A stretch of 64,000 nt of DNA from an uncultured Bacilli bacterium (GCA_934096075.1 CAKOLN010000003.1:26184-90183); one strand, 5' to 3'; shown: positions 12-34,327, counted from the stretch's first letter. Made by a program: numbers and translations. Notes: generated by a model not told the origin, from the sequence alone.

Positions 12-338
12 ATGAATGGTAGTTACTACAAAAGCCCATTATTTCCAAACGAACCAATCTATGAAAGAGATACTGCAGTACCTAACCAAAATAATGACTT
101 ACCAATGGAACAAAGTTACATAGAAAATATACTAAGACTTAATAAAGGAAGAAAAGCAACAATATATGTAAGTTTTCCTGATTCCATAAATTGGAAAGAT
201 AAAATATTTACTGGAATAATTGAACAAGCAGGAAGAGATCATATCATATTAAGTGATCCTGAAACTGGAAAATGGTATATGATATTAATGATATACTTAG
301 ATTATGTTGAGTTCCAAGATAAAATAAACTACAAATAA
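12..338 (+). CDS. gerQ: Spore coat protein GerQ-like (C-terminal Spore_GerQ domain)
   Basis: 108 aa; the C-terminal motif ENILRLNKGRKATIYVSFPDS...WKDKIFTGIIEQAGRDHIILSDPETGKWYMILMIYLDYVEF matches the conserved GerQ/YwdL core from memory. An in-frame TAA lies immediately upstream, so the ORF starts at 12. A hairpin plus T-run terminator sits at about 340-366. Confidence 0.6.
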   Translation: MNGSYYKSPLFPNEPIYERDTAVPNQNNDLPMEQSYIENILRLNKGRKATIYVSFPDSINWKDKIFTGIIEQAGRDHIILSDPETGKWYMILMIYLDYVEFQDKINYK

Positions 339-480: not shown

Positions 481-876
481 ATGATTATTTCCAAAGGAAG
501 AGGATATGTATATGGTATAGAGTACCATATAGTATTTTGTACTAAATATCGTAAAAAAATAATAACCGATAGTGTAAAAGATTCACTTTTTCAAATAATT
601 ATATCATTATCTCAAGAAATGGATTTTAAAATAATAGAAATTAATACAGATTTAGACCATATTCACTTGTTAATTAGTTGTAAGCCTCAGCATTATATAC
701 CTACTATCGTAAAAAGATTAAAAGGTACAAGTGCAAGACTATTATTTAAATTATATCCAGAATTAAAAAAAGAATTATATGGTGGACATATGTGGAATCC
801 TTCTTATTTTGTTGCTACTGTTAGTGATACACTAGAAGATAATATTAAAGAATATATTTCTAATCAGGGGAAGTAG
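481..876 (+). CDS. tnpA: IS200/IS605 Y1 (HUH) transposase TnpA
   Basis: 131 aa; the HIVFCTKYRKK motif, the HUH-type HIHLLIS motif and a C-terminal catalytic Y region (WNPSYFVATVS) are typical of IS200-like TnpA. Confidence 0.85.
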   Translation: MIISKGRGYVYGIEYHIVFCTKYRKKIITDSVKDSLFQIIISLSQEMDFKIIEINTDLDHIHLLISCKPQHYIPTIVKRLKGTSARLLFKLYPELKKELYGGHMWNPSYFVATVSDTLEDNIKEYISNQGK

Positions 877-1968
877 GTGTTATTTATGGAGTATACTTAT
901 AGTTTTAGAATTTATCCTAATGAAGAGCAAATTGTTTTAATTGCTAAAACTTTTGGATGTTGTAGATTTATCTATAATTATTTTTTAGACTATTCTAATA
1001 ATAATGGCTATAGTTCAAAGTATACAAATAATAATACCTGTAATAGAGAGCTAAAAGTAGAATATCCTTGGCTTAAAGAAGTGGATAAGTTTGCTATTAC
1101 TAATACTATTTATAATTTAGATAATGCTTATAAAAGATATATAAACAAATTAGGTGGTAATCCTAGATTTAAAAAGAAAAATAAGGGAGAATCTTATCAA
1201 ACTAATTATACTAATAATAATATAGAAGTATTAGATAATTACATTAAATTACCTAAATTAGGTAAAGTACTCGCTAAAGTTCATAGAAAAGTAGAAGGTA
1301 CTATTATTAATGCTACAATAAAAAAATATAGTAATAATAAATATAAAGTAATGATATTAGTTAGAAAAGAAATTAAAAAGTTAGAAACTAATAGTTATAT
1401 AGTAGGAATAGATATGGGAGTTAGTAATTTTGTTCATGATAGTTCTAATAATATATATAATGCTCCTAAAGAATTAATGAATACTTATGATAAAATAGGT
1501 AGATTACAAAAAAGTCTTTCTTTAAAAAAGAAAGGCAGTAATAATTATAAGAAAATAGAAAATAAGATTAATAAACTATATGATAAATGTAATAATGTTA
1601 GAAATGATTTCTTACATAAATTAAGTACTAGTATTATAAACGAAAACCAAGTTATAGTAGTAGAAGATTTAAATGTTAAAGAAATGTTTCAAAATAAGAA
1701 TATAGCCAAAGTACTTGGAGATATATCTATATCTAAGTTTATTAATATGTTAGAATATAAAGCAAAATGGTATGGAAGAAAATTAATAAAGGTTGGTAGA
1801 TATTATCCATCTAGTCAGTTATGTAATAACTGTGGTTATCAAAATAAAAAAATAAAAGACTATAGTATAAGATCTTGGCAGTGTCCTAGATGCGATAGTG
1901 TACATGATAGAGATTATAATGCTGCGAACAATATACTAGATAAAGGAATAGAATTATTACTTATCTAA
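877..1968 (+). CDS. tnpB: IS605 OrfB / TnpB RNA-guided endonuclease (RuvC-like plus Zn finger)
   Basis: 363 aa; RuvC-I (VGIDMGV), RuvC-II (VVEDLNVKEM) and a C-terminal zinc finger (CNNCGY...CPRCDSVHDRDYNAANNI). It is full length with no frameshift. Confidence 0.85.
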   Translation: MLFMEYTYSFRIYPNEEQIVLIAKTFGCCRFIYNYFLDYSNNNGYSSKYTNNNTCNRELKVEYPWLKEVDKFAITNTIYNLDNAYKRYINKLGGNPRFKKKNKGESYQTNYTNNNIEVLDNYIKLPKLGKVLAKVHRKVEGTIINATIKKYSNNKYKVMILVRKEIKKLETNSYIVGIDMGVSNFVHDSSNNIYNAPKELMNTYDKIGRLQKSLSLKKKGSNNYKKIENKINKLYDKCNNVRNDFLHKLSTSIINENQVIVVEDLNVKEMFQNKNIAKVLGDISISKFINMLEYKAKWYGRKLIKVGRYYPSSQLCNNCGYQNKKIKDYSIRSWQCPRCDSVHDRDYNAANNILDKGIELLLI

Positions 1969-9120: not shown

Positions 9121-9603
9121 ATGAAGAAAATATTCTTAATTGCAATTTGCATACTTATAATAGGATGTCAAAAAGAAGAAAATATTTATACTATAAAAGC
9201 AAACATTGAGGAAAATATTCTTAAGAATAAAGACTACAATAATTTAAGTTCATGTAAAATTGATGAAATCAATAATACAATAACTATAGAATTAATCAAT
9301 AATAGTGAAGAAGAACAAGAATGGTTTAAAAATAATATATCAAATTCAAATAAACTAATATTTAAGCAAGGAAAAGAAATTAAACAAGAAGAACTAACTT
9401 ATGTTTATAATTATATTAACGATTACATAAATTCAAATGGGCAAATAGAAAATTATACAGGTCATTACATAGATGAAATATGTAATAGTGTTGTAGTGAG
9501 TTTATTAGAAAATAACCAAAAACATCAAAATAATTTTAAACAAAACATAATTGATTCTAATCTAATAGAATTTAAAAAAGGAAATTATGGTATAGACCAA
9601 TAA
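9121..9603 (+). CDS. Lipoprotein, function unknown
   Basis: Lipobox LIIGC at residues 13-17; 160 aa, N/E/K-rich. Confidence 0.6.
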   Translation: MKKIFLIAICILIIGCQKEENIYTIKANIEENILKNKDYNNLSSCKIDEINNTITIELINNSEEEQEWFKNNISNSNKLIFKQGKEIKQEELTYVYNYINDYINSNGQIENYTGHYIDEICNSVVVSLLENNQKHQNNFKQNIIDSNLIEFKKGNYGIDQ

Positions 9604-18798: not shown

Positions 18799-19365
18799 TT
18801 ATATAACTTTATCAATAATTCCATACTCTAAAGCTTCGTTACTATCCATAAAATAATCTCTTTCAGTATCATTTTCTATCTTTTTAAGGCTTTTCCCAGT
18901 ATTATCACTTAATATTTTATTAATTTTCTTTTTCAACCTAATAATTCTCTCAGCTGCAATTTTAATCTCAGTTGCTTGCCCTTGACAGCCACCTAAAGGT
19001 TGATGTATCATCACTTCAGAATTTTTAAGTGCCAACCTTTTTCCTTTTTTACCACTAGACAGCAAAAAAGCTGCCATACTAGCACACATTCCAACACATA
19101 TAGTAGAAACATCACTCTTAATAAAATTCATAGTATCATAAATAGCCATCCCGGAAGTTATACTCCCACCAGGACTATTTATATACAAATAAATATCATC
19201 ATTACTAACTCCATCTAAATAAAGTAACTCACTCACCACTACATTACTTACTTCATCATTAATTTCTCCACTCAAAAAAATAATTCTATCTTTAAGTAGT
19301 CTACTATACAAGTCATAATATTTCTCTCTTCCATTTTCTTCTATAGTTATAGTTGGTATAATCAT
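18799..19365 (-). CDS. clpP: ATP-dependent Clp protease proteolytic subunit ClpP
   Basis: 188 aa; catalytic Ser in GMAASMAAF, His in MIHQPLGG; classic ClpP N-terminus. The only minus-strand gene in the window. Confidence 0.92.
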
Positions 19366-19470: not shown

Positions 19471-21120
19471 ATGAAAGACAACATAATAATTGATGTAACT
19501 GGTTATGATAAAGTATTATTTAAAGAAGGCGGTACTCTAGAAGAACTATTAAAAAAAATAGATGCTCCTAAAAACATAATCGCAGGTATAATAAACAATG
19601 AAATATTAGAATTAAATTATAAACTTAAAGAAGACACTACTATAAAACTAATTACTACTAATGATAGACAAGGTTCAAAAATATACATAAATGGTTTAAA
19701 GTTTTTATACATAACTGCTATAAAAGAATTATATGGTGCATCCACTGATGTAAGACTTAAACATAGTTTAGACAAAGGAATATATACAACTATTGATATG
19801 GAACTAAACACAAAAGTATTAGATGATATAAAAGCAAAAATGCATGAACTTGTAGAAAAAGACTTACAAATAGAAAAAATAACAACAAGTAGAAAAGAAG
19901 CTATAAAATATTTTGATTCAATAAATGAACAAGAAAAATCAAGTAACTATAAACAAATGACTAATGAAGTAGTAACTCTTTATTCATTATTAGATTACTA
20001 TAACTATTTCTTTAGTCCAATGCCTATAAGTACAGGAATACTAAAAGATTTTGATCTAACTTTAACAAAAGATAAAGCTGTAATACTAGAATACCCAGAT
20101 ACTCTAACAGGTTCAATACCAAAATATAATCATATGGAAAAAGTACTAAATGTATTTACTACATACTCATCATGGGCAAATAAACTAAATGTTAACTATG
20201 TATCAGATGTAAATAATGTAGTAATCCAAGGAAAAATAAAAGAATTTATTCAACTAAATGAAATAAAACAAAATGATGATCTAAATAAAATAGCTAATGA
20301 AATAGAAAATAACATAAAAGATATAAAACTTGTACTAATCGCAGGACCTTCTTCATCAGGTAAAACAACAACAAGTAAAAAACTATCTTTATACTTAAAA
20401 AACAAAGGAATAAATCCATTTGTAATATCTACAGATGATTACTTTAAAGATAGAAAAGATACTCCAAAGAATGAAAAAGGCGAATACGAATATGACATAC
20501 TAGAAGCATTAGATATTGATTTATTTAATGAACAAATAACTAAATTACTAAATAATGAAAAAGTAAAAATACCAACATATAACTTTATTACTGGAGAAAA
20601 AGAATTTAAAAATAAAGAAATATCTATAGAAAATAGAGACTTAATTATAATTGAAGGTATACATACTTTAAATGAAGAATTAACTAAAAGTATACCTAGA
20701 AAAAATAAGTACAAAATATATATAAGTCCATTTACTCCACTTGATTTAGATAGACATAATCATGTATCAACTGTGGACATTAGACTTATAAGAAGACTAG
20801 TAAGAGATTATAGAACAAGAGGATATGACGGAGAAGCAACCTTAAAAAATTGGCCACTTGTAAGAGCAAGTGAAGAAAAATATATATTTCCTTATCAAAA
20901 AGAAGCAGATGTCGTTTTAAATACTGCTCTAATATATGAATTAGGAATACTTAAAACATATGCAATACCAATTTTACAAGGAATAGACTACAAAAGTGAA
21001 TTTTATATAGAAGCAATAAGAATAATGAATTTCTTAAAATATTTCTTAGATATACCAGAAAGTGCATTACCAACAACAGCACTATTAAGAGAATTTGTTG
21101 GTGGAAGTTATTTTGAATAG
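19471..21120 (+). CDS. TGS-domain / uridine-kinase-family (PRK/URK) fusion nucleoside kinase
   Basis: 549 aa; N-terminal ThrRS-like TGS-type domain; central P-loop LIAGPSSSGKTTT and PRK/URK-like region. Confidence 0.6.
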   Translation: MKDNIIIDVTGYDKVLFKEGGTLEELLKKIDAPKNIIAGIINNEILELNYKLKEDTTIKLITTNDRQGSKIYINGLKFLYITAIKELYGASTDVRLKHSLDKGIYTTIDMELNTKVLDDIKAKMHELVEKDLQIEKITTSRKEAIKYFDSINEQEKSSNYKQMTNEVVTLYSLLDYYNYFFSPMPISTGILKDFDLTLTKDKAVILEYPDTLTGSIPKYNHMEKVLNVFTTYSSWANKLNVNYVSDVNNVVIQGKIKEFIQLNEIKQNDDLNKIANEIENNIKDIKLVLIAGPSSSGKTTTSKKLSLYLKNKGINPFVISTDDYFKDRKDTPKNEKGEYEYDILEALDIDLFNEQITKLLNNEKVKIPTYNFITGEKEFKNKEISIENRDLIIIEGIHTLNEELTKSIPRKNKYKIYISPFTPLDLDRHNHVSTVDIRLIRRLVRDYRTRGYDGEATLKNWPLVRASEEKYIFPYQKEADVVLNTALIYELGILKTYAIPILQGIDYKSEFYIEAIRIMNFLKYFLDIPESALPTTALLREFVGGSYFE

Positions 21121-21132
21121 GAGGAAAAGTAA

Positions 21133-22137
21133 ATGATAAGAGTAGCAATTAATGGTTTTGGGAGAATAGGAAGATGTGCACTAAGACAAATGAGTGAATT
21201 AGATAATGTAAAAGTAGTCGCAATTAATGATTTATCTGATCCACTTACACTAGCATATCTATATAAGTATGATTCAGTTCATAGAACAAATAAAGAAAAA
21301 GTTACATATGATAATGATAGCATAATAGTTAAAGATGAAGAAATTAAAATATTTAAAGAAAATGATCCAAACAATTTACCTTGGAAAGAACTAGATATTG
21401 ATGTTGTTTTAGAATGTACTGGGGTATTCACATCTAGTGAAAAATCTCAAGCACATATAAACGCAGGAGCAAAAAAAGTAATCATAAGCGCACCTTCAAA
21501 AGATGACACGAAAACAGTAGTTTATGGAGTAAATGAAAGTATTTTAAATAGTGAAGATACAATTATAAGTGCTGCTTCTTGTACAACTAATTGTCTAGGA
21601 CCAGTATTAAAATTATTAAATGATAATTACCATGTAATAAGTGGGTTCATGTCTACAGTTCATGCAATGACAAACGACCAAGAAACACTCGATATAACTC
21701 ATAAAAAGGGTATAGAAAGTAGAAGAGGCAGAGCTGCTAGTTTAAACATAGTACCAACTTCAACAGGCGCTGCATCACAAATCGGTAAAGTTATACCCGA
21801 ATTAAATGGTAAACTTGATGGCGTGGCATATCGCGTACCAGTAGGGGATGGTTCACTAATAGACTTAAATGTTTTAGTAGAAAAAAATCCTACAATAGAT
21901 GAAGTAAATAAAATGTTCAAAACTAATCAAAATAATACAATTAAAATAGTAAATGCACCTTTAGTAAGTAGTGATATTATTGGATGTACAGAAGGTGCAG
22001 TAGTTGATTCACTTTTGACAAAAGTACTAGATATGAATGACTATTCAATGATTAAAGTATCAGCATGGTATGATAATGAATGGGGTTATACTAGTCAAAT
22101 GTTAAGAACTATGGAATATTGGATGAGTCTTAAATAA
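21133..22137 (+). CDS. gap: Glyceraldehyde-3-phosphate dehydrogenase
   Basis: NAD-binding INGFGRIGR; catalytic ASCTTNCL; 334 aa. Confidence 0.92.
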   Translation: MIRVAINGFGRIGRCALRQMSELDNVKVVAINDLSDPLTLAYLYKYDSVHRTNKEKVTYDNDSIIVKDEEIKIFKENDPNNLPWKELDIDVVLECTGVFTSSEKSQAHINAGAKKVIISAPSKDDTKTVVYGVNESILNSEDTIISAASCTTNCLGPVLKLLNDNYHVISGFMSTVHAMTNDQETLDITHKKGIESRRGRAASLNIVPTSTGAASQIGKVIPELNGKLDGVAYRVPVGDGSLIDLNVLVEKNPTIDEVNKMFKTNQNNTIKIVNAPLVSSDIIGCTEGAVVDSLLTKVLDMNDYSMIKVSAWYDNEWGYTSQMLRTMEYWMSLK

Positions 22138-22205
22138 AAAAATAATAAACTTGGTTGAAAATAAACAATAAATATAATATTATTAAAGTAGGGAGGTTAA
22201 AAAAT

Positions 22206-22748
22206 ATGACTAAATTAGAAAAAGCTATGCAACAAATGTGTACACCTGGTCTATGGGAAGCAACTATTAACTTTTGTTATCAAAATTCCAATAAAAAAGA
22301 AATATATCTTTATGATGGAGAAAGTAAAGCATACAACATAATAGTAAGAACAGGAATATCACCTTACTATGTAGAAGAACTACTAACAGGAATTCAAATA
22401 CCTATTATTTATCAAAGAAAATTAAAGGAAAAAGGTATAATAGAAGGAAAAATAATAAACAAAATTAATAGGGCTTATGGAGTAGTATTAAATATTTATG
22501 ATAAACCATTTTCAACTAATACCAATTATGAATTTCAACATCAAAATAATACTAATGAATTTTATGGACCATTTAATAAATACTATTCTCTAGATAAAAG
22601 TAAAACGTTAGTTAACAAATATCAAGAGTTGCATCCAGATTATAATGAATTTAAATTAGAATTAGAAGAATATTTAGATAAAACAATAACTGAAATGAAT
22701 GAATACATTAGAAGAGAGCAAATAATAAGATTAAACTTAAAAAAGTAA
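22206..22748 (+). CDS. Hypothetical protein inserted between gap and pgk
   Basis: 180 aa from the ATG at 22206, preceded by GGGAGG; the ORF track extends to 22155. No recognisable domain. Confidence 0.5.
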   Translation: MTKLEKAMQQMCTPGLWEATINFCYQNSNKKEIYLYDGESKAYNIIVRTGISPYYVEELLTGIQIPIIYQRKLKEKGIIEGKIINKINRAYGVVLNIYDKPFSTNTNYEFQHQNNTNEFYGPFNKYYSLDKSKTLVNKYQELHPDYNEFKLELEEYLDKTITEMNEYIRREQIIRLNLKK

Positions 22749-22820
22749 AGAAAGTGTTAAAAACTTTCTTTTTTCTTTTATTAACAAAAAATTATGTATA
22801 TAATAAAATTGGTGATATAT

Positions 22821-23960
22821 ATGAGAAAACTAAAAAATATCAAAGTAGAAAATAAAAAAGTATTAGTAAGAGTAGACTATAATGTACCAATTAAAAATGG
22901 TTTAGTCTTAGATAACAATAGAATAATACAAAGCATTGAAACAATAAATTACTTGATTGAACATAATGCTAAAATAATACTTATGTCTCACATGGGAAAA
23001 GTAAAAAAAGTAGAAGATAAAATGTTAAATACTTTAAAACCAGTAAAAATAGAATTAGAAAGAATATTAAATAGAAAAATTTATTTTGCTGAAGAATTAA
23101 AAGGAAAAGCATTAGAATCTCAAATTAACTCTCTTAAACCAGGAGAAATCTTACTAATGGAAAACACCAGATACATGGATGTTCCAGATAACTTAGAAAG
23201 TAGTTGTGATGAAGAACTTTCTAAATACTGGGCTAGTCTAGGAGATGTATTTATTCTAGATGCCTTTGGTTCATGTCATAGAAATCATGCATCTACTTAT
23301 GGAATAAGTAAGTACTTACCACATGCTATAGGTTTCTTAATAGAAAGAGAATTAAAAGAATTAAATAAAATAAAAAAAGATAAAAAAACTTTCATACTAG
23401 GTGGATCTAAAGTTAGTGATAAAATAGGCATAATAAAAAATCTAATGGACAACACCGACAAATTCTTAATTGGAGGTGCTATGTGTGCAACATTCCTAAC
23501 TGCGAATGGTAATCCAGTAGGAAGTACTTTTGTAGAAACTGATAAAATAACAGAATGTAAAAATCTTTTAAAAACAGGAAAAATAATAATTCCAATAGAC
23601 TATGTAACAGAAAATGGAGTAAAAAAATTAAATGATATATTTAATGATGAACACATACTAGATATTGGACCTAAAACAATAGAACTATTCAAAAATAGAA
23701 TTGATATAAATACCCTTATAGTATTAAACGGAACACTAGGTAAATATGAAGAAGATGCATATCAAAATGGTACAAAAGAAATATTTAATTATCTAAAAGA
23801 AAACATAGTAAAAACAGTAGTGCTTGGTGGAGATACATCATCTGCTGCAAAAAAATATAACTTTAATGCATCATACATTTCAACTGGAGGAGGAGCAAGC
23901 CTAGAATATCTAGAAGGTAAAGAATTTGAAACACTAAAAATAATGGAGGAATCCAAATGA
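22821..23960 (+). CDS. pgk: Phosphoglycerate kinase
   Basis: N-terminus MRKLKNIKVENKKVLVRVDYNVP; C-terminal GGGAS; the upstream ORF-track extension is unlikely. Confidence 0.9.
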   Translation: MRKLKNIKVENKKVLVRVDYNVPIKNGLVLDNNRIIQSIETINYLIEHNAKIILMSHMGKVKKVEDKMLNTLKPVKIELERILNRKIYFAEELKGKALESQINSLKPGEILLMENTRYMDVPDNLESSCDEELSKYWASLGDVFILDAFGSCHRNHASTYGISKYLPHAIGFLIERELKELNKIKKDKKTFILGGSKVSDKIGIIKNLMDNTDKFLIGGAMCATFLTANGNPVGSTFVETDKITECKNLLKTGKIIIPIDYVTENGVKKLNDIFNDEHILDIGPKTIELFKNRIDINTLIVLNGTLGKYEEDAYQNGTKEIFNYLKENIVKTVVLGGDTSSAAKKYNFNASYISTGGGASLEYLEGKEFETLKIMEESK

Positions 23961-24649
23961 AAACAATAGTACTGAATCATAAAAGTTACCTAAGTTATAA
24001 TGAAATAAATAAATATAAAGAAAAAATAAATAACATCCAAACTAAAAATATTAACCTAGTATTAATGCCTAACTTAGCATATCTATCATTATTTAAAGAT
24101 TCTAAAATTAAAATAGGTGCCCAAAATTTCTATAGTTATAACTATGGTTCATACACTGGTGAAATACCTCTTGAAATATTAAAAAGTCTAAACATAAATT
24201 ACACCCTAGTAGGCCATCCAGAAAGAATCACCTTAAAATTAGACACATATGAAGAAATAAAAGAAAAACTATATAGAAGCCTTAACTCAGGTTTCAAAAC
24301 TATTCTTTGTATAGGACATGATGAAAAACTAAGTACAATAAAAAAAGAATTAAAATATTACATAAAATCCTCAGACTATATAGACATAAAAAACTTAATA
24401 ATCGCATATGAACCAATATCTAAAATAGAAAATGAAGAAGCTAACTTAAAAGACATAGAATATTTAAATAAATATATAAAAGAATACTTCATGTATGAAT
24501 TTGAAGAAGAAATAGAATTTTTCTATGGAGGTTCAGTTAATAAAGAAAACATAAATGAAATTCTTAACATAACAGATGGTGTTATAATAGGAAAACTTAG
24601 TACTGACATAAACTCAGTTAAAGAAATAATAGAAAATATAACAAAATAA
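23957..24649 (+). CDS. tpiA: Triosephosphate isomerase, highly divergent (TIM-like)
   Basis: 230 aa; alignable to TIM: K near the N-terminus (NHKSY), catalytic His (GHPERI versus GHSERR), catalytic Glu (AYEP), and YGGSV. However, the loop-6 AIGTG is replaced by SKIENEE and the GGAS phosphate loop by GKLS. ATGA overlap with pgk. Confidence 0.65.
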   Translation: MKTIVLNHKSYLSYNEINKYKEKINNIQTKNINLVLMPNLAYLSLFKDSKIKIGAQNFYSYNYGSYTGEIPLEILKSLNINYTLVGHPERITLKLDTYEEIKEKLYRSLNSGFKTILCIGHDEKLSTIKKELKYYIKSSDYIDIKNLIIAYEPISKIENEEANLKDIEYLNKYIKEYFMYEFEEEIEFFYGGSVNKENINEILNITDGVIIGKLSTDINSVKEIIENITK

Positions 24650-24767
24650 AAACTATAAATACATTTCATGACACAAATCGTCATTATTAGACATAACTAG
24701 ACCTTTTTCGCTATGGATTTATGTATAATAAATTTATATAATAAAGACAGTGTTAAAGGAGAAATAA

Positions 24768-25532
24768 ATGAAAAAGAAAATAATGATTGTGGATGATAAC
24801 AAGGCCTTAGTAGGTATGTTAAAAGAGTTTATAAATAATACTAATGACTTAACATTATTAAAAGAAGCATATAATGGTGGAGAAGCATGGGAATATATAA
24901 AAGATAATTATAGTGAAATAGATGCTTTAATATTGGACTTAGTAATGCCAGAAAAAGATGGAATGTATTTATTAGACAAATTAAAAGAAAACAAAATAAA
25001 TTTAAAAATATTAGTATTAACAAGTTACAACGAACAAGAAACAATAAGAAATGTAAGTGAATATGGAGTAAAATATTTCATGCTAAAACCATTTGACTTA
25101 CAAGAATTACATAAAAGAATACAAGATATAACAAATCCTAAAGCAAAAGAAGCAAAAATAATAAATGTAGAAAAGAATAATACTCAAGCAATGATAACTA
25201 AACTCTTACATGAACTAGGAATACCATCACATATTAAAGGCTATCAATACATAAGAGAAGCCATCAATATGGTATATGATGATCCTAAACTTATAGGAGG
25301 CATAACTAAAGAATTATATCCAGAGATAAGCACTAAATATGGTCAATCAGTAACTCGAGTAGAAAGAGCAATTAGACACGCTATTGAAGTGAGTTGGAAT
25401 CGTGGAGATTGGGACTTAATGGAAGAAATCTTTGGACACTCAGTTGATATAGATCGAGCAAAACCTACAAACTCAGAATTTATAGTAACAATCGCAGACA
25501 AACTAAGATTAGATATGCTAAAAATACATTAA
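24768..25532 (+). CDS. spo0A: Sporulation master regulator Spo0A (REC plus Spo0A_C DNA-binding domain)
   Basis: 254 aa; receiver domain (DDN...D, LDLVMP); C-terminal Spo0A signature HIKGYQYIREAI...ISTKYGQSVTRVERAIRHAIEVSWNRGD...EFIVTIADKL. Confidence 0.9.
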   Translation: MKKKIMIVDDNKALVGMLKEFINNTNDLTLLKEAYNGGEAWEYIKDNYSEIDALILDLVMPEKDGMYLLDKLKENKINLKILVLTSYNEQETIRNVSEYGVKYFMLKPFDLQELHKRIQDITNPKAKEAKIINVEKNNTQAMITKLLHELGIPSHIKGYQYIREAINMVYDDPKLIGGITKELYPEISTKYGQSVTRVERAIRHAIEVSWNRGDWDLMEEIFGHSVDIDRAKPTNSEFIVTIADKLRLDMLKIH

Positions 25533-25584
25533 TTCTTTAAATTAAAAAAGAAATGTGCTAGAATGTATCTAGGTGATAAAAATA

Positions 25585-27093
25585 ATGAAAAAAGTAATAT
25601 TATTAATACTAGATGGATTTGGAATAAACAACAGTGAATATGGAAATGCAATAAAACAAGCAAGAACACCTGTAATAGATAAACTTCTAACAGTTTTTCC
25701 ACATGCACAATTAGCGGCTTCAGGAATAGAAGTTGGACTTCCAAAAGGACAAATGGGAAATAGTGAAGTTGGACACATGACTATAGGTAGTGGTAGAATT
25801 AATCCACAACCATTAACATACATAAATGATAAAATAAAAAGTAAAGAGTTTTTTGATAATGAAGTACTAAAAAATACAATGAACTTTGTAAAGGAAAATA
25901 ACTCAACACTTCACTTAATAGGACTTCTTTCTAATGGTGGAGTTCACTCAAGTATAAATCATTTCTATGCAGCTCTAGCAATGGCTAAACTAGAACATGT
26001 AGAAAAAGTGGTATTTCACTTTATAACTGATGGAAGAGATACAGATCCTAAAAGTGGAGTTAAATTTGTAACGGACTTTATGGAAAAAGCAAATAAACTT
26101 AAACTAGGAGAAATAGGTACTATCTCAGGTAGATATTATGCAATGGATAGAGATAATCGTTGGGAAAGAATAAAAAAATCCTATGATGCAATGTGCTACG
26201 GATTAGGTAATTCTTTTTCAAACTATGAAAGTTGTTTTAAAGAACACTATAAAAGAGATATAACCGACGAATTTATTAATCCAAGTATACTATCAAATAA
26301 CACTATAAAAGATAATGATGCAATACTATTTATTAACTTTAGACCAGAAAGAATGAAAGAACTAATAGATGCATTTCATGATAAAAACTTTAAACCATTC
26401 AAAACAAAACAATATCAAAACTTAAAATTAACATCTTTATTTAACATACATCAAGATATTGAATATGCTTTTGATACTGAAAAACCAAAAGAAACATTTG
26501 GTGAATACATAGATGGATTAGATTATACACAAGCAAGAATAGCTGAAACAGAAAAATATGCTCATGTTACATACTTCTTTGATGGAATGGAAGAACTATC
26601 AAGTAACAAATGTGATAAAATATTAGTACCATCTCCAAGTGTACCAACATATGATATGAAACCTGAAATGAGTGTAGGAGAAGTAACAGAAAATGTTTTA
26701 AAAGCAATTGATAATGATTATGATTTCATATTAGTTAATTTTGCAAATCCAGACATGGTTGGACACACAGGTAACTTTAATGCAACTAAAGATGCTATAG
26801 AAATATGTGACTTCTGTGTAGGAAAAATATTTGAAGCAGCTAAAGAACATTTCTATGAACTAGTAATAACTGCTGACCATGGTAATGCAGAAAAAATGTT
26901 AACAAGAGATGGAACACCAATAACTAGTCACACAACAAGTCTTGTTCCTTTCATAGTATGTAATGAAGAATATAAATTAAAAGAAACAGGATCACTAAAA
27001 GATATAATACCAACAATAATAGATATATATCAAATAAAAAAACCAGACAAAATGACTGGAGAAAGTTTAATAATTAAAGAAGATTCAAAGTAG
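25585..27093 (+). CDS. gpmI: 2,3-bisphosphoglycerate-independent phosphoglycerate mutase
   Basis: Start MKKVILLILDGFG; Ser-phosphotransfer region MGNSEVGHMTIG; metal-binding ADHGNAE; AGGTGA RBS. Confidence 0.9.
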   Translation: MKKVILLILDGFGINNSEYGNAIKQARTPVIDKLLTVFPHAQLAASGIEVGLPKGQMGNSEVGHMTIGSGRINPQPLTYINDKIKSKEFFDNEVLKNTMNFVKENNSTLHLIGLLSNGGVHSSINHFYAALAMAKLEHVEKVVFHFITDGRDTDPKSGVKFVTDFMEKANKLKLGEIGTISGRYYAMDRDNRWERIKKSYDAMCYGLGNSFSNYESCFKEHYKRDITDEFINPSILSNNTIKDNDAILFINFRPERMKELIDAFHDKNFKPFKTKQYQNLKLTSLFNIHQDIEYAFDTEKPKETFGEYIDGLDYTQARIAETEKYAHVTYFFDGMEELSSNKCDKILVPSPSVPTYDMKPEMSVGEVTENVLKAIDNDYDFILVNFANPDMVGHTGNFNATKDAIEICDFCVGKIFEAAKEHFYELVITADHGNAEKMLTRDGTPITSHTTSLVPFIVCNEEYKLKETGSLKDIIPTIIDIYQIKKPDKMTGESLIIKEDSK

Positions 27094-27163
27094 TCTTCTT
27101 TTTTATAATACTTTTTGATAAAATAAAATTATCACAAATTAACAAAAGATGAGGAGTTTAGCT

Positions 27164-28033
27164 ATGAAATACTATATAGAATTACAGGGAACTTGTTGGT
27201 TAGTTCAATACTTAAATTATATTAATAAAGATTATGATAAAGACAGTTTTTTTAAATATCTAGCACTAAATAGATTTTTAAGATACGAAAAGGCAATAAA
27301 ACTTGTTAATAACAAAGAACTTATTAACACTAAAGAATACTTATTAGAAACATTATTAACATTTGAAGGAAGTTTATTTGATATTGAAGATATATTAAAC
27401 TATAAAATAAATTGGGATTTAAAAAATGATATTAAACTAGAAGATATAATGTTAATGAATGAAAAAGTATTGATGTTTTTATTAGAAATGTATGATAACA
27501 ATATAGACTTGAGTAACAAGATTTTTGAAAAGTTAAATAAAACATTTGGTAATTTAAAATTTGAAAAAAATAAAAAAAACACACTTAATATAGTGATAAG
27601 TAATCCAAAATTAGAATACAAAAAAATAAATCTAATTAACAGTGAAAACCTATATCATACTCAGAAAAGTTTTTATAATGTACAAAATGTTAATGAAATA
27701 ATAGATAGAGAATTGACAAAAAACAAAAAGGTTTTAGTTTCAATAGATATAGCTAAATCAGTAACAGACATAAACAAAATTATATATCCGAAAGGAATAA
27801 AAAAGGATACTTTAAATAAATTTATATCTATAGATAATCACTATTACATATTAACTGAAAAAATAACTCTAAATAATGAAACATATTATAAAGCATTCAC
27901 TGGATATCAAAATGATGAATATGCATTAATTTCAAATAAATATTTGAAAGAGTTTCTAAATCATATAATATGTGATAAAATAACAATTAAAGAAGAAACA
28001 ACACTAGATTTTTATAAATATATGGAGGAATAA
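27164..28033 (+). CDS. Hypothetical protein
   Basis: 289 aa from the ATG after the GAGGAG RBS; no motifs recognised. Confidence 0.45.
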   Translation: MKYYIELQGTCWLVQYLNYINKDYDKDSFFKYLALNRFLRYEKAIKLVNNKELINTKEYLLETLLTFEGSLFDIEDILNYKINWDLKNDIKLEDIMLMNEKVLMFLLEMYDNNIDLSNKIFEKLNKTFGNLKFEKNKKNTLNIVISNPKLEYKKINLINSENLYHTQKSFYNVQNVNEIIDRELTKNKKVLVSIDIAKSVTDINKIIYPKGIKKDTLNKFISIDNHYYILTEKITLNNETYYKAFTGYQNDEYALISNKYLKEFLNHIICDKITIKEETTLDFYKYMEE

Positions 28034-28034
28034 A

Positions 28035-28820
28035 ATGCAAGAAATATCAAAATCAAATGAAAAAGTAAAAGAATTAAAAAACTTAAAAAATAAGGGAAAA
28101 AACAATTTAATGGTAGTAGAAGGTTTAGATGTAATTAAAGAAGCAATAAACTATAATGCTGAAATAATGAGTGTGTTTTATAATGAAGAAACATTAAGAG
28201 ATGAGGCACTAGAATTATTAAATGAATGTAAAAAAAGAGCAAAAGAAGTATATAGAATTTCGCTTAAAACATTTGAATCATTAAAAGAAAAAGAAAATGC
28301 AATACCTATCATAATTGTTGTTAAATATAAAGAATTAACATTAAAAGATATAGACAAAAATAAACATAAATTAATAATAGTAAATGATAGAATAGAATTA
28401 CCAGGTAACTTAGGAACTATATATAGAAGTGCATATGCAAGTGGAGTAGACCTAATAATAAATGTTAATCCTGTAACAACAATATACAAAGAAAAATTCT
28501 TGGCCAGTTCAAGAGGAACGATATTCAGTATTCCTACTATAAATACTACATATGAAGAAGCCCAAAAATCACTTTTAGAATTAGGCTATGATATATGTCT
28601 TTGTGAACCAGTTGAAGGAACATCATATAATGAATTTGACTATCAAGAAAATACAGCATTAGTAATAGGAAATGAAAGATTTGGAATTAATAAAGAATGG
28701 TACAATAACAAAAATAGTAAAGTATTTATACCAATGAAAGAAGGTATTAATTCAATAAATGTTTCAGTCGCAGGCTCAATAATAATGTTTGATGCTGGTA
28801 TAAAAATGAGGAAAATATGA
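28035..28820 (+). CDS. TrmH/SpoU-family RNA 2'-O-methyltransferase (RlmB-like)
   Basis: 261 aa; SPOUT motifs (LVIGNERFGI, SINVSVAGSI); stop overlaps the start of the downstream radical-SAM gene (ATGA). Confidence 0.7.
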   Translation: MQEISKSNEKVKELKNLKNKGKNNLMVVEGLDVIKEAINYNAEIMSVFYNEETLRDEALELLNECKKRAKEVYRISLKTFESLKEKENAIPIIIVVKYKELTLKDIDKNKHKLIIVNDRIELPGNLGTIYRSAYASGVDLIINVNPVTTIYKEKFLASSRGTIFSIPTINTTYEEAQKSLLELGYDICLCEPVEGTSYNEFDYQENTALVIGNERFGINKEWYNNKNSKVFIPMKEGINSINVSVAGSIIMFDAGIKMRKI

Positions 28821-30022
28821 AATTAAGTAAATATGTAATTAAGATTCCATATGGCACTAAAGTGATTTTATATAATACAGTAAATGATATGATTGTACTT
28901 TGCGATTATAAAGACTTTTTTAACAAAGAAACAAAACAATATTTAAAAAATAATGGATATTATGATAATAGTGAAAAACAATTAAAAAATTTTATAAAAA
29001 ATACTAAAAAGAAAAGAACCCAACTTGATATAACAATAAGTTTAACAGAGAGTTGTAATTTATGCTGTAAGTACTGCTCTCAAAGTGGAGTAAAAAATGA
29101 TTCATTTATAACTAAAGAAATAATTGATGAAATAATAGAATACATAGAAATTTGTAAAAATAAATATGGCTATAAAACATTTTCAATCCATTTATTTGGT
29201 GGAGAACCATTATTACAAAAGCAGGAGATTCTATATTTAAATAACAAATTAAAAGAAAAAAATATACCAATAAATTATTATATGGATACTAATGGAATAT
29301 TGTTAAGTGAAAAATTTATAAAAGAATTTGATAATATAACTTTTTGTGTAACATTAAGTAACAAATGCGACCACGATAATCTAAGAGTTACTTCAAACAA
29401 TACTGGAAGTTATGATTTAATTATGGAAAATCTAAACAAAATTCAGTATGTACTTGATAACAATCATAGATTAATGGTTAGATATAATGTGAATGATAGA
29501 AATATAAATGACTTAGAAGAATTCCTTAAAACAATTGAAAACATTAAAATAAGTGATTTTGTTGTAGCCTATACAAATAATTATAAAGAAAATTTATTTA
29601 TAAATAAATTACCTTATAAAAAGTATAAAAAATGGAATTCTAAAAAAATAATACCACTACTAGAAAAATATAATTATCCTATATCACTTCCTACATCAAG
29701 TTTTTATTGTAAAGGCTATGAAGACTATTCTATAAAAGTCTTTTCGAATGGTAAAATAGGTATGTGTAATGCCTATGATATTAGTAATTCAAAATATACA
29801 TTAAAAGAAATATTAGAAAACTACTATAAAACAAAAAAACTTATAAAACCTTTTGAAGAAGAAAGAAATCTTGATAATATAATAGATAAAGAATGTAAAA
29901 AATGTGCATTAATATATATATGTAATGGTAAATATTATTGCAGAGATAATAAATGTGATTTTTTAGATTATAATTTAAAAGAATACATTAAATCATATGT
30001 AAAAAATGTATTGAATAAATAA
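28817..30022 (+). CDS. Radical SAM enzyme with C-terminal SPASM/twitch-like Cys cluster and ~75-aa N-terminal extension (putative peptide-modifying maturase)
   Basis: 401 aa; CxxxCxxC as CNLCCKYC at about residues 80-87; C-terminal Cys cluster (MCNAY...CKKCALIYICNGKYYCRDNKC); the N-terminal extension before the rSAM core fits an RRE-like domain. Confidence 0.7.
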   Translation: MKLSKYVIKIPYGTKVILYNTVNDMIVLCDYKDFFNKETKQYLKNNGYYDNSEKQLKNFIKNTKKKRTQLDITISLTESCNLCCKYCSQSGVKNDSFITKEIIDEIIEYIEICKNKYGYKTFSIHLFGGEPLLQKQEILYLNNKLKEKNIPINYYMDTNGILLSEKFIKEFDNITFCVTLSNKCDHDNLRVTSNNTGSYDLIMENLNKIQYVLDNNHRLMVRYNVNDRNINDLEEFLKTIENIKISDFVVAYTNNYKENLFINKLPYKKYKKWNSKKIIPLLEKYNYPISLPTSSFYCKGYEDYSIKVFSNGKIGMCNAYDISNSKYTLKEILENYYKTKKLIKPFEEERNLDNIIDKECKKCALIYICNGKYYCRDNKCDFLDYNLKEYIKSYVKNVLNK

Positions 30023-30061
30023 AATAATTTGGTAAAATATAGTTAAGAAAGGAATTAAATT

Positions 30062-30166
30062 ATGAAAGTAATTAAGAAACCCGTTAAAAAATCTAAAATT
30101 AATGCAGCAGGATGTGGAGAAAACAAGGTTAATAGTAGCCATTGTGCATCAAAGAAAAGTAATTAA
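30062..30166 (+). CDS. Small ORF (34 aa) absent from the ORF track: candidate RiPP precursor / signalling peptide
   Basis: MKVIKKPVKKSKINAAGCGENKVNSSHCASKKSN; RBS AAAGGAA 8 nt upstream; a strong hairpin terminator (aggcccatatgggtct plus T-run, 30174-30200) lies immediately downstream; two Cys residues; sits directly after the rSAM/SPASM gene. Confidence 0.5.
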   Translation: MKVIKKPVKKSKINAAGCGENKVNSSHCASKKSN

Positions 30167-30272
30167 TTAGATTTAGGCCCATATGGGTCTTTATTTTTGT
30201 ATAAAATTACCACTACTTGCATTTTTTTTAAATTGTGCTAAAATAAAGTACACTGAAAAGAGGCGATTATAT

Positions 30273-32036
30273 ATGTCATTAATAAAAAAAGATACAAATT
30301 ATCCTAGTATTGATAAAACTCACGAAAAACAATATAATTTTTTTGAAAATAATCCAATAATTCCAAGCATAAGCATATTTAATGCAATAAACCTTATTAG
30401 TAAAAGCTATTCTAATGAAATTGCTGTTAATAGTTTAGAACTTAACAAGACTTTTAAATCGCTAATAAAAGATTCTGCTTTGCTTTCTAAAGCATTTAAA
30501 GAACTTGGAATAAAAAATGGTGACATAATTGTTGTATCAATGCCTAATTATTATCAAGCTGTAATTACTTTTTTTGCAGCAAATCGCATTGGAGCAACAA
30601 CAACATTTTTAAATTCATTTAGTAGTAAAGAAGAAATTAGTAATTATTTAAACTTATTTGAATCGCCTTTATTTATAAATTATAATAAAAGTGAAGAATA
30701 TAACAAATATATAAAAAATAATACAAAAGTAAGACAAATTATAACCCTATATGAAAAAGATTTAAATATGCCATATTTTAATGATAATACTAATAATTTT
30801 ATAGGCTATAATGATTTTATTTCTTTTAATGATGCAAAATTAGTTGGTAATTACTATAAAAAGCCATTAACAACATTATATGGAGGAAAAGAAAATGCTT
30901 TAATATTATACACAAGTGGAACTACAGGTAATCCAAAATCAGTAGTTTTAACCAATGAAAATATCTTGGCCTCAGGAATATACATGAAAAATTCAACAAA
31001 TTTATCAAATACTAAAGGAGAAAAATCATTAGTATGTGTACCATTTACTTACCCTTATGGTTTTTCAACATCAACATTAATGAGTTTATTATGTGGTAGA
31101 CAAGCAATTCTAGCACCTGATTTATCAAGTGAAAATATAAAAACATATTTAAAGAAAAATCCAAATATAATTTTTGGAAGCCCAGCATTATTAGAACTTA
31201 TAAAAAGAAATACACCTGAAAATCAAGATTTGTCATCAATTAAAACATTTATATCTGGTGGTGATTTTCTAACAGAAACGCAAGCGAAAGAAGGAAAAGA
31301 ATTTTTTAAAAAGCATAATGCAGAAGTAACAATATGTAATGGTTCTGGAAATGCGGAGACAGTTGGCGCCAGCACAAACTCAGTAGGAATAAAAATAAAA
31401 CCAGAAACAGTCGGAAAAATTCTAGTGGGCACAAAAGCAATTGTTATTAATCCTGACACAATGAAAGAATTAAAATATGGTGAAGAAGGTTTATTATGCA
31501 TAAGTGGTAAACATGTGTTTAAAGAATATTATAAAGAGCCAAAACTAACACAGGATTCAAAATTTATTTACAAAGGTAATACATATTTTAAAACAGGAAC
31601 AAGAGGCAAAATAGATAAAGAAGGTTACTTTACTTTAACTGGAAGAGATTCAAGATATTATATTATCTCAACTTTAAATAAAGTATATTGTGATAGAGTA
31701 CAATTAATTATGTCTAGAATAGATTGCATAGAAGCAGTAGCAATAGTAGAAAAACCTGACAAAGAAATGTTGTTTACAAACAAAGCATTTATTGTGTTAA
31801 AGGAAGGTATAAAAGCAAGCGAGGCAATAAAAAAATATATATTAAGAAAATGCACTGAAACTTTGAAATTAGAAAACGGAGAAGATGTTGAACTAAAAGA
31901 ATATGAAATACCTAGTAGCATAGAATTTGTTGAAAAATTGCCTAGAACCAAAGCAGATAAAATTGATTACAATGTTTTAAAAGAAAATGCAATAAATGAA
32001 TATAAAGAAGAACAGCATATACTAAAGCTTAAATAG
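30273..32036 (+). CDS. AMP-dependent synthetase/ligase (adenylate-forming enzyme, acyl-CoA-ligase-like)
   Basis: AMP-binding motif LYTSGTTGNPKSVVLT; A-domain-like architecture; RBS AAGAGG; start at the ATG at 30273. Confidence 0.8.
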   Translation: MSLIKKDTNYPSIDKTHEKQYNFFENNPIIPSISIFNAINLISKSYSNEIAVNSLELNKTFKSLIKDSALLSKAFKELGIKNGDIIVVSMPNYYQAVITFFAANRIGATTTFLNSFSSKEEISNYLNLFESPLFINYNKSEEYNKYIKNNTKVRQIITLYEKDLNMPYFNDNTNNFIGYNDFISFNDAKLVGNYYKKPLTTLYGGKENALILYTSGTTGNPKSVVLTNENILASGIYMKNSTNLSNTKGEKSLVCVPFTYPYGFSTSTLMSLLCGRQAILAPDLSSENIKTYLKKNPNIIFGSPALLELIKRNTPENQDLSSIKTFISGGDFLTETQAKEGKEFFKKHNAEVTICNGSGNAETVGASTNSVGIKIKPETVGKILVGTKAIVINPDTMKELKYGEEGLLCISGKHVFKEYYKEPKLTQDSKFIYKGNTYFKTGTRGKIDKEGYFTLTGRDSRYYIISTLNKVYCDRVQLIMSRIDCIEAVAIVEKPDKEMLFTNKAFIVLKEGIKASEAIKKYILRKCTETLKLENGEDVELKEYEIPSSIEFVEKLPRTKADKIDYNVLKENAINEYKEEQHILKLK

Positions 32037-32110: not shown

Positions 32111-34327
32111 ATGGGAACTGGAATATACTTTCCAATTAGTGCTTTATTATTTAGCTTATTGATAATGTTATTATTCTTTTTAAAAGAACATATTAATACA
32201 ATGGAAACAAAACTTTATGGTGCAATAGTTATAACAAATTTTTTAGGTTTAATCATTGAAATCCTATGTACATTAGCATCAAAAATATATGAAACTAATA
32301 AACTTTTTGCAGACATTATCTTAAAATTATATCTAGTTTATTTAGTAACATGGGCACTAATATTTACGATTTATATAATATTAATTTCATTTAATAATAA
32401 TAAACTAAAAAATAATAAAGAAAAATTACTTAGAATCGCAAAAATATTTTATTTTATTTCAGTAATAATAATTTATATTTTACCAATTGATTTAGTAATA
32501 AAAAATAATTTTTCAATAAGATATACAACTGGACCAAGTGTATATTTTACATACTTTATTTCATTTGTAATGATTATAGTTATGCTTTATTGTATGATAA
32601 AAAATTATAAAAATTTGAAATCAAAGAAATACCTACCATTATTTACTTTTTTAACTTTAGGTACTGCAACGATGATTTTTCAAATGATTAATCCTCAATT
32701 TTTATTAATAACATATATGGAAACATTTATAACTGTATTAATGTATCATACAATTGAAAACCCAGATGTTAAAATGAAAAATGAATTAGAACTAGCCAAA
32801 AATAAAGCAGATCAAGCAAATAATGCAAAATCAGATTTCTTATCAAGTATGTCGCATGAAATAAGAACACCATTAAATGCAATTGTAGGTTTATCAGAAA
32901 ATATGCAAACAGAAACAAACATGAATGTAATACATTCTAATGCAAAAGATGTAGTCGATGCAAGTTATATACTTTTAGATATAGTAAATAGTATACTAGA
33001 TATAAGTAAAATAGAAGCAGGAAAAATGGAAATGGTAAATACTAACTATAATCTAAAAAGTGAAGTAAAAAAACTAGTAAAACTATTAGAAACAAGAATA
33101 GGAGAAAAAGATTTAAAACTAGTAACAAATATAAGTGATGAAATACCAAATGTATTATATGGGGATGTAAATAAAGTAAAACAAATAATAACAAACTTAG
33201 TAACAAATGCAATAAAATATACAGACAGTGGAGAAGTAGATTTCACAATAGATGCAGAAAACAAAGATGATAAATGTAACTTAACAATAACAGTAAAAGA
33301 TACAGGAAGAGGAATAAAAGAAGAACAACTAAAACACCTATATGAAAAATTTGAAAGACTAGAAAGTGATAAAAACACAACAATCGAAGGAACAGGATTA
33401 GGACTAGCAATAACAAAACAATTAGTAGGAATGTTTAAAGGAACAATAACAGTAGATAGTATATATGGAAAAGGTTCAACATTCAAAGTAACACTAACAC
33501 AAGACATAAAAGAAGGAGTAATACTAGAAGAACATAATGAAACAGAACAACAAAAATATAATAATGTAAAAGTACTAGTAGTAGATGATAGTAGTCTAAA
33601 CTTAAAAGTAGCCGACACAATATTAAGAAAATATAATATAGAAACAGAACTAGTAACAAGTGGACAAGAATCAATAGAAAAATGCAAAACAAATAAATAT
33701 GATATAGTATTTATGGACATAATGATGCCTTCAATGTCAGGAGAAGAAACATTAAAAAAACTAAAAGAAATAAAAGACTTTAACACACCAGTGGTAGCCT
33801 TAACCGCAGATGCAATGGAAGGAAAGAAAGAAATATATCTAAGTGAAGGATTTATAGATTATCTAAGTAAACCAATACAAAGACCAGAATTAGAAGAAGT
33901 ACTAGGTAAAATATTAAGTAATAACATTTCATCAGAAACAAGAACAGAAGATAAAAGTACAAATAACCTATCATACTTAGAAGAACACGGTATAGATACA
34001 AAAACGCCATTAGAAATGTTTGGTAGTGAAGAAATGTACATAGATTCAATAAAAACATTTATAGAAGAAACACCAGAATCTTATACTAATCTTATGAGAT
34101 ACTATTTAGACAATGATTTAGAAGATTATAAAATTTTAGTTCACAAATTAAAAAGTGAAAGCAGGTATATTGGACTAAATAAATTCTCAGATATGTGTTT
34201 AGAACATGAAATAAAAGCAAAAGAAGGGGATAATCAATATATAATATCTAACTTTAGTAGCTTAATAAAAGAATACAAAAATGTAATGAGAATATTAAAA
34301 GATTTTATATGTACGACAAATAAATAA
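32111..34327 (+). CDS. Hybrid sensor histidine kinase (7 TM – HisKA – HATPase_c – REC – HPt)
   Basis: 738 aa; seven N-terminal TM helices; H-box SHEIRTPLNAI; N/G boxes (NAIKYT, GTGLGLAI); REC (VLVVDDSSLN...FMDIMMP); C-terminal HPt-like helix with HKLKSES. Confidence 0.8.
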   Translation: MGTGIYFPISALLFSLLIMLLFFLKEHINTMETKLYGAIVITNFLGLIIEILCTLASKIYETNKLFADIILKLYLVYLVTWALIFTIYIILISFNNNKLKNNKEKLLRIAKIFYFISVIIIYILPIDLVIKNNFSIRYTTGPSVYFTYFISFVMIIVMLYCMIKNYKNLKSKKYLPLFTFLTLGTATMIFQMINPQFLLITYMETFITVLMYHTIENPDVKMKNELELAKNKADQANNAKSDFLSSMSHEIRTPLNAIVGLSENMQTETNMNVIHSNAKDVVDASYILLDIVNSILDISKIEAGKMEMVNTNYNLKSEVKKLVKLLETRIGEKDLKLVTNISDEIPNVLYGDVNKVKQIITNLVTNAIKYTDSGEVDFTIDAENKDDKCNLTITVKDTGRGIKEEQLKHLYEKFERLESDKNTTIEGTGLGLAITKQLVGMFKGTITVDSIYGKGSTFKVTLTQDIKEGVILEEHNETEQQKYNNVKVLVVDDSSLNLKVADTILRKYNIETELVTSGQESIEKCKTNKYDIVFMDIMMPSMSGEETLKKLKEIKDFNTPVVALTADAMEGKKEIYLSEGFIDYLSKPIQRPELEEVLGKILSNNISSETRTEDKSTNNLSYLEEHGIDTKTPLEMFGSEEMYIDSIKTFIEETPESYTNLMRYYLDNDLEDYKILVHKLKSESRYIGLNKFSDMCLEHEIKAKEGDNQYIISNFSSLIKEYKNVMRILKDFICTTNK

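Follow-up and report, generated by a model that had tools for sequence, protein, structure and literature searches.

Why should spo0A, the gene of the master regulator of sporulation and stationary phase, lie between two genes of glycolysis? The question is raised by a stretch of DNA of 64,000 nucleotides (nt) from an uncultured Bacilli bacterium (GCA_934096075.1 CAKOLN010000003.1:26184-90183), the whole of which is called the window in the following; there, spo0A is found between tpi and gpmI. An initial sequence-only reading had taken this position as an unusual insertion, which would link the regulator physically, and perhaps transcriptionally, to glycolysis. Comparison with related genomes leads to a different view: the tpi-spo0A arrangement is an old inherited trait of a deep lineage and is not peculiar to the window genome; it is unusual when measured against model organisms, but normal for its clade. 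The explanation we favor, with a probability of about 0.7, is that of an autonomous, autoregulated spo0A unit, the position of which was inherited from the ancestor of the clade, within a fragmented string of glycolytic genes.

The locus and its genes

On the plus strand, which carries nearly all genes of the window (approximately 25% G+C), the order is udk-like gene, gap, a small open reading frame (ORF), pgk, tpi, spo0A, and gpmI. The last six had been recognized at these positions, with spo0A between tpi and gpmI, before any database search, and the Pfam and NCBIfam profile matches from which gene identities were taken agree: gap, encoding a type I glyceraldehyde-3-phosphate dehydrogenase, occupies 21133..22137 (TIGR01534, 409.6 bits vs a cutoff of 367), the small ORF 22206..22748, pgk 22821..23960 (PF00162, 387 bits), tpi 23957..24649 (PF00121, 148 bits; it overlaps the pgk stop codon by 4 nt), spo0A 24768..25532, and gpmI, encoding a cofactor-independent phosphoglycerate mutase, 25585..27093 (TIGR01307, 616 bits), all on the plus strand. 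Three of the starts differ from the listed ones: for the small ORF, listed from TTG 22155, ATG 22206 is the likely start; for pgk, listed from 22794, ATG 22821 is the probable one, as suggested by the gene call in a close relative (locus L081) and the Shine-Dalgarno (SD) sequence; and for gpmI, listed from GTG 25573, an SD sequence AGGTGA and the relatives point to ATG 25585. The spacer between tpi and spo0A measures exactly 118 nt (24650-24767), as had been noted. The absence of eno from the cluster was likewise seen correctly, and it extends to the whole window, in which neither the enolase signatures SGETED and NQIGT (any frame) nor a match to the enolase of a relative (tblastn) could be found.

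The product of spo0A matches the equivalog family TIGR02875 as a whole protein (residues 2-250) with 264.2 bits, well above the cutoff of 200. Its DNA-binding domain (Spo0A_C, PF08769, 135.9 bits) spans residues 143-246, and in its receiver domain (PF00072, 80.7 bits), the Asp pocket of which is intact, D9, D10, D57, T85, and K107 are invariant in an alignment of homologs. The recognition helix (R)VERAIRHAIE is invariant in 30 Spo0A homologs and was also used as a search pattern. Judged by these features of the protein, which is 43% identical to that of Bacillus subtilis (locus L047) and belongs to the same TIGR02875 family, the window gene is a genuine ortholog of the sporulation and stationary-phase regulator. 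Its nearest homologs are metagenomic proteins, few of which carry a label ("Tenericutes bacterium," "Mycoplasmatota bacterium," or "Bacilli bacterium"); a further protein search, with a profile of the basal subclade, hit no named organism in culture.

Conservation of the gene order

Relatives were collected in a scan with one genome per species, which gave 35 loci from metagenome-assembled genomes (MAGs) of uncultured Tenericutes, Bacilli, and Mollicutes with Spo0A proteins 45-67% identical; 8 contigs from closer or very prevalent relatives were added (Spo0A 46-98% identical to that of the window), and 45 loci of other Bacillota, mostly Bacillales and Paenibacillaceae, served as the outgroup from the same scan. 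Gene order was read by tblastn and ORF clustering, with flanks of up to 10 kb on each side. Related genomes commonly share the order of the window: of the 44 clade loci, 39 have tpi upstream of spo0A. The distance is no more than 200 nt in 31 of these, whereas in the other 8 the two are separated by an additional gene or by another copy of spo0A; gpmI directly follows spo0A in 21 of the 44. Throughout the clade the order is clpP (minus strand)-udk-gap-pgk-tpi-spo0A, often continued by gpmI, and the S10 ribosomal operon is encountered a few kb further. In the window, clpP (18799-19365, minus strand) is divergent from the udk-like gene (19471..21120, plus strand), which encodes a TGS-like N-terminus followed by a uridine kinase/PRK domain (PF00485; uridine kinase in NCBIfam) and opens the co-directional string, its end being separated from gap by 12 nt.

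The outgroup is organized differently. There, spoIVB lies directly upstream of spo0A, and recN before spoIVB, in 42 of the 45 Bacillales/Paenibacillus loci, which bears out the earlier statement that spo0A normally follows spoIVB; neither spoIVB nor recN was found in any clade locus within the flanks inspected. The same difference sets the window (tpi-spo0A-gpmI) apart from B. subtilis (recN-spoIVB-spo0A). In a neighbor-joining tree of Spo0A the clade loci form one monophyletic group, apart from the Bacillales and the other outgroup sequences, and it is because the order is common throughout this one group that we regard it as an old inherited feature; spo0A would have become fixed between tpi and gpmI in the ancestor that this large clade has in common.

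With this survey, the idea of an event confined to the window genome, be it a recent insertion, a horizontal transfer, or a mis-assembly, loses practically all of its probability. It draws on nothing beyond the first impression of an order not typical of Bacilli and Clostridia, and it is at odds with the recurrence of that order in separately assembled genomes from many different studies and hosts, with the uniform base composition over the region, and with the Spo0A tree, which puts the loci in one clade, consistent with vertical inheritance. A genome-specific insertion or an assembly artefact is thus ruled out by the synteny of the 44 loci.

The missing eno also turned out to be the rule in the clade and is uninformative by itself: motif and tblastn searches found the gene near spo0A in one of the 44 loci only (L022, with the order murD-eno-spo0A-gpmI). 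Other parts of the string are variable. The slot between gap and pgk is empty in some relatives (e.g., L086) and in others holds a gene for an Rce1-like protein or a helix-turn-helix (HTH) protein. The small ORF occupying it in the window has no Pfam, NCBIfam, or PHROG match and is lineage-specific; a weak homolog exists in L001, and the corresponding DNA of L081 (7372-8053) is 97% identical but has a 1-nt deletion in an A-run, either because the gene is decaying or because of a homopolymer sequencing error. In a large subclade (L005-L026; e.g., L005 6865-9142) two genes are inserted between pgk and tpi, which had been suspected to encode enolase or SpoIVB; they encode instead a lysyl-PG-synthase-TM-like protein and a GT4 glycosyltransferase, so that the glycolytic string there includes a pair of membrane-lipid genes.

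Several individual loci deviate in detail. L016 (4425-6036) has two spo0A copies in tandem directly 3′ of tpi. In L085 (2078-5223) a fusion of pgk and tpi forms a single ORF of 615 amino acids, and a gene for an AAA_14/DUF4143 ATPase lies on the opposite strand between tpi and spo0A, the 0A-box array and the -10 elements described below being kept. Two contigs with the clade-typical order clpP-udk-gap-pgk-tpi-spo0A, L017 and L009, are filed as "Acidaminococcus fermentans" and "uncultured Muribaculaceae," which probably are binning or labelling errors.

The clade consists of AT-rich uncultured gut Bacilli, probably of the RF39/ML615J-28/RFN20 group of GTDB. For RF39, ML615J-28, part of RFN20, and the Anaeroplasmataceae, the presence of spo0A has been published (PMC10868615); like the organisms considered here, those (in RFN20 the families CAG-631 and CAG-449) are known from host-associated, AT-rich MAGs of former Tenericutes with reduced genomes, which retain spo0A and a reduced set of sporulation genes. 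That survey, however, deals with the presence and absence of genes, not with gene order, and does not mention glycolysis. It had been allowed for that the arrangement might be both common among relatives and already known for the clade; the first holds, the second does not, as the literature on sporulation genes of RF39, RFN20, and ML615J-28, including PMC10868615, Firmicutes-wide sporulation gene surveys, and MAG sporulation papers, is silent on the position of spo0A or on glycolytic genes. A full-text literature search for spo0A in connection with a glycolytic operon, or with tpiA synteny, gave no relevant hit. The presence of spo0A in these orders is published; no paper describing tpi-spo0A synteny was found.

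The region upstream of spo0A

The tpi-spo0A spacer had been proposed to be a promoter region of spo0A's own, and this was borne out: it carries a conserved array of 0A boxes followed by TATAAT. The search of 24650-24767 for 0A boxes revealed five box-like heptamers on the plus strand (24667..24713) with an exact spacing of 10 nt, namely, CATGACA, ATCGTCA, TTAGACA, CTAGACC, and TTCGCTA. The best of them, TTAGACA (24687-24693), has one mismatch to the consensus TTCGACA; no other intergenic box on the plus strand of the window comes as close to it. The heptamer TTCGCTA, to which the sequence-only reading had drawn attention at about 24706 as a one-mismatch box, does exist and is part of the array, but its position is 24707-24713 and it has two mismatches. 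Since the boxes of the window are degenerate, arrays were scored with a matrix trained on other loci, combined with a phasing test; by this measure the array before spo0A is the top-scoring one of three, four, or five phased units in the whole window on both strands. Exact TTCGACA occurs twice in the window, both times inside coding regions and at chance level, and not in the spo0A spacer.

Across the clade, boxes are strongly enriched before spo0A. Within 150 nt upstream of spo0A in 42 loci (6300 nt), exact TTCGACA occurs 26 times, in 25 loci, vs 0.13 expected as predicted from the rest of the same loci. All 26 are on the coding strand and none on the opposite strand; control intergenic regions contained 3 exact boxes in 18.6 kb. 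Successive boxes are separated by 10 nt in 31 cases, by 20 nt in 9, and by 30 nt in 3; the two to five boxes of an array are repeated in the same direction, along a single face of the helix, and in 30 of 44 loci the best or tied-best phased pair of the entire locus (up to 20 kb, both strands) is located upstream of spo0A. Exact 0A boxes precede spo0A in the outgroup Bacillales as well; the Bacillaceae typically have one TTCGACA and one TGTCGAA approximately 130 nt apart, tandem pairs being rare, and so differ from the single orientation and strict 10-nt phase of the clade.

Downstream of the boxes, two TATAAT hexamers (24724-24729 and 24737-24742, plus strand) are invariant in an alignment of the subclade, where they and the GACA cores of the boxes stand out as conserved islands amid diverged sequence. 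The second one, 43 nt after the best box, is probably the -10 element of spo0A; in distant members, which have a single TATAAT, the distance from the last box is 43-44 nt. An SD sequence, AAAGGAG (24755-24761, plus strand), precedes the gene. A promoter of the sigma-H type was not recognized by eye upstream of spo0A, and Rfam matches in the window comprise rRNA and tRNA only, with no leader or riboswitch near spo0A.

Tandem 0A boxes are known from the abrB promoter of B. subtilis, where they are bound head-to-tail by Spo0A dimers. The arrays of the clade resemble those in being direct repeats of a heptamer with a 3-nt spacer and a 10-bp period; they differ in that the abrB boxes are located downstream of the start site and serve repression, whereas those of the clade, up to five units, are located upstream of the -10 element. 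Phosphorylated Spo0A is predicted to bind head-to-tail to the array, in which the units recur every 10 nt on the same side of the helix; from its place approximately 45-85 nt upstream of the TATAAT, the array would feed back on the spo0A promoter. The B. subtilis spo0A locus likewise has 0A boxes of the consensus TTCGACA/TGTCGAA upstream of the gene, which is autoregulated through boxes placed between the promoters Pv and Ps (PMC12090719); in contrast to that layout with Pv, Ps, and 0A1-0A4, the clade has a sigma-A-like TATAAT and no evident separate vegetative promoter further upstream. Because the boxes are enriched, oriented, and phased across the clade, and because outgroup and B. subtilis provide precedents, we infer that the Spo0A of this clade recognizes the classical 0A box and regulates its own gene from an upstream array which would bind it as a multimer. 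Binding by Spo0A, the sign of the autoregulation, and the transcription start sites are likewise, as is the neutrality of the arrangement, what we infer from the DNA.

Distant relatives (e.g., L006, L013, L015, L026-L030) show two more conserved motifs in this region, CTAG-N10-12-CTAG between the 0A boxes and the -10 element, and GCGTG(G/C)nAGTA 5-7 nt downstream of the TATAAT and close to where the transcript probably starts. In L006, L012, L013, L017, and L026 the promoter-proximal 0A box lies within GACAAAAGTTGTC, followed by a T-run, approximately 85-95 nt upstream of spo0A; the sequence may represent two half-sites in inverted orientation or else a weak terminator that overlaps the box.

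Transcription units

The central glycolytic operon of B. subtilis is cggR-gapA-pgk-tpiA-pgm-eno, and gap, pgk, tpi, and the cofactor-independent mutase gene occur in the same order and on one strand in the window. The likeness ends there: cggR or any other regulator of the DeoR/SorC type is missing, the upstream gene being the udk-like kinase, eno is absent, a variable gene and a terminator separate gap from pgk, spo0A is placed between tpi and gpmI, the latter having a promoter element of its own, and distant clade members have the lysyl-PG-synthase-like and GT4 genes between pgk and tpi. While order and strand of gap-pgk-tpi-gpmI are kept, their contiguity is broken by the variable ORF and by spo0A. 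What looks like a glycolytic operon would then be a series of separate units, namely, udk-gap-(variable gene), pgk-tpi, spo0A, and gpmI.

As a standard terminator scan (at least three G-C pairs) misses the AT-rich hairpins of this genome, it was replaced by a relaxed scan combined with folding. A terminator-like hairpin with a T-run was found after the small ORF (22746..22781, plus strand; -10.2 kcal/mol, z -2.3), and it is followed by a promoter-like site before pgk (22781..22809, plus strand; TTAACA, 17 nt, TAAAAT), which is a consensus match only (10/12). A second hairpin with a T-run overlaps the stop codon of gpmI (27077..27100, plus strand; -8.8 kcal/mol, z -3.6). In front of gpmI a consensus scan recognized the extended -10 element TGCTAGAAT (25556..25564, plus strand), with TTTAAA at 25536-25541. 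An extended -10 of the form TGnTAnn[AT]T is present in all 21 loci in which gpmI follows spo0A, a few nt before the ribosome-binding site of gpmI; gpmI therefore probably does not depend on the spo0A promoter and would be driven from its own. Among the relatives, a terminator-like hairpin separates the upstream gene from the box array in about a third, and a hairpin with a T-run follows spo0A within 90 nt in 19 of 44 loci. Since many relatives have terminators beside spo0A and gpmI has its own -10, cotranscription is not the conserved property, and the transcriptional link between spo0A and glycolysis that had been suggested at the outset gives way to independence as the reading favored by the evidence: spo0A and gpmI each have a conserved -10, with terminators on both sides in many relatives.

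Some observations weigh against an autonomous spo0A unit, at least in the window species. The boxes of the window itself are degenerate, without an exact TTCGACA, the best having one mismatch and the others two or three. The promoter calls are consensus matches, and such matches are no commoner in this 25% G+C genome than in shuffled sequence. From the pgk promoter region to the end of gpmI (22782-27076) relaxed scan and folding gave no hairpin with a T-run, and folding of the tpi-spo0A and spo0A-gpmI spacers gave no hairpin followed by a U-run; in the closest relatives (L081, L082, L085, L086, L001, L087, L088), too, a terminator was found on neither side of spo0A. To judge from the sequence, it is plausible that transcripts from pgk-tpi read through into spo0A and continue into gpmI in the window species. 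Finally, the adjacency of tpi and spo0A persists over very deep divergence, even where genes are inserted between pgk and tpi, and could reflect selection rather than neutrality.

These observations can be assembled into an alternative, which we consider unlikely. In it, pgk-tpi-spo0A-gpmI would form a single operon between the terminators at 22746 and 27077, in which read-through from the constitutive glycolytic promoter provides the basal, vegetative Spo0A, the role of Pv, until phosphorylated Spo0A on the array stops this transcription and turns on the internal promoter, much like a switch from Pv to Ps; the basal dosage of Spo0A would follow the expression of the glycolytic genes. The unterminated stretch in the window and in its closest relatives and the clade-wide tpi-spo0A adjacency fit this model, and the array, placed between tpi and the -10 element, has the topology of 0A1-0A3 between Pv and Ps, for which a roadblock to transcription from Pv has been proposed (PMC12090719). 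Yet the hairpins before the boxes and after spo0A in other relatives and the constant extended -10 of gpmI do not fit, 0A boxes are lacking before gap, pgk, and gpmI, and no feature that would discriminate in favor of coupling is conserved across the clade. The flanking synteny, moreover, with clpP-udk-gap upstream and the S10 operon downstream, is conserved to the same degree, so that general stasis of the genome explains the adjacency. Restricted to the subclade of the window, the notion that the pgk-tpi promoter took over as the vegetative promoter of spo0A, the array acting as roadblock to read-through and as activator of the internal promoter, is tentative and likewise unlikely; if true, it would tie the decision to sporulate directly to the central carbon metabolism of a gut lineage which has a reduced genome and may lack a phosphorelay. 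An autonomous, autoregulated spo0A in an inherited position accounts better for the clade as a whole, and the arrangement most likely has no direct metabolic meaning.

Sporulation genes and other genes of the window

Might the regulator have been repurposed instead? In a lineage that no longer sporulates, Spo0A could have been kept for stationary phase or carbon metabolism, its placement reflecting the new role. Bacteria that form no spores may have Spo0A, and sporulation cannot be deduced from its presence alone (bioRxiv 10.1101/2022.02.25.481979; PMC10868615); orders of the RF39/ML615J-28/RFN20 type have reduced sets of sporulation genes (PMC10868615). Against this stand the prediction that RF39, most of ML615J-28, and part of RFN20 are able to sporulate (PMC10868615), the lack of 0A boxes before the glycolytic genes, and an autoregulatory layout which is the classical one of the sporulation Spo0A. 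The window furthermore encodes a GerQ-family spore-coat protein (12-338, plus strand; PF09671, 128 bits), so that the genome keeps at least one other sporulation-specific gene. Repurposing is accordingly very improbable. In RF39 and in the RFN20 families CAG-631 and CAG-449, gerQ is reduced or absent (PMC10868615), so that its presence here is also a weak hint that the window belongs to ML615J-28 rather than to RF39 or RFN20.

Five kb downstream of spo0A, a hybrid histidine kinase is encoded (32111-34327, plus strand) with HisKA, HATPase_c, and a C-terminal receiver domain, which makes it a candidate for a Spo0A kinase. At the corresponding place in L081, a 98% relative, a homolog of the kinase is found, which is only 44% identical over the N-terminal sensor part. 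The block between gpmI and the kinase (27149-32036, plus strand) encodes an unknown protein of 294 amino acids, an RNA methyltransferase of the SpoU type, a peptide maturase of the radical-SAM/SPASM type, and an AMP-binding ligase. L081 lacks this block and carries other genes in the interval between gpmI and the kinase; the block has the appearance of an island exchanged in recent time and may be a RiPP-type cluster that includes a methylase for self-resistance.

Further away, a phosphoketolase (XFP; 59581-61932, plus strand) would supply glyceraldehyde-3-phosphate to the lower glycolytic enzymes of the cluster. An IS200/IS605 element (481-1968, plus strand) consists of the Y1 transposase gene (TnpA) followed by a TnpB/Cas12f-like OrfB, and an unlabelled ORF (9121-9603) has a weak match to a PHROG of unknown function, the sole PHROG match among the unknown ORFs.

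Biological meaning

The contrast between tpi-spo0A(-gpmI) and recN-spoIVB-spo0A is a clean one and could mark a large clade of uncultured Bacilli from human and animal guts. The layout looks like a lineage marker, not like a demonstrated link between sugar metabolism and sporulation. If read-through from pgk-tpi were true in the subclade of the window, it would be a compact tie of basal Spo0A dosage to glycolytic expression; if not, the arrangement would be a case of ordinary gene-order evolution. The ability of the clade to sporulate has so far been predicted from gene content only, and with the conserved, phased array of 0A boxes these organisms have a first concrete feature of Spo0A regulation. 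The array leads to the prediction that the Spo0A of the clade recognizes the classical box and regulates its own synthesis, and the motif may be used to look for the rest of the Spo0A regulon in MAGs.

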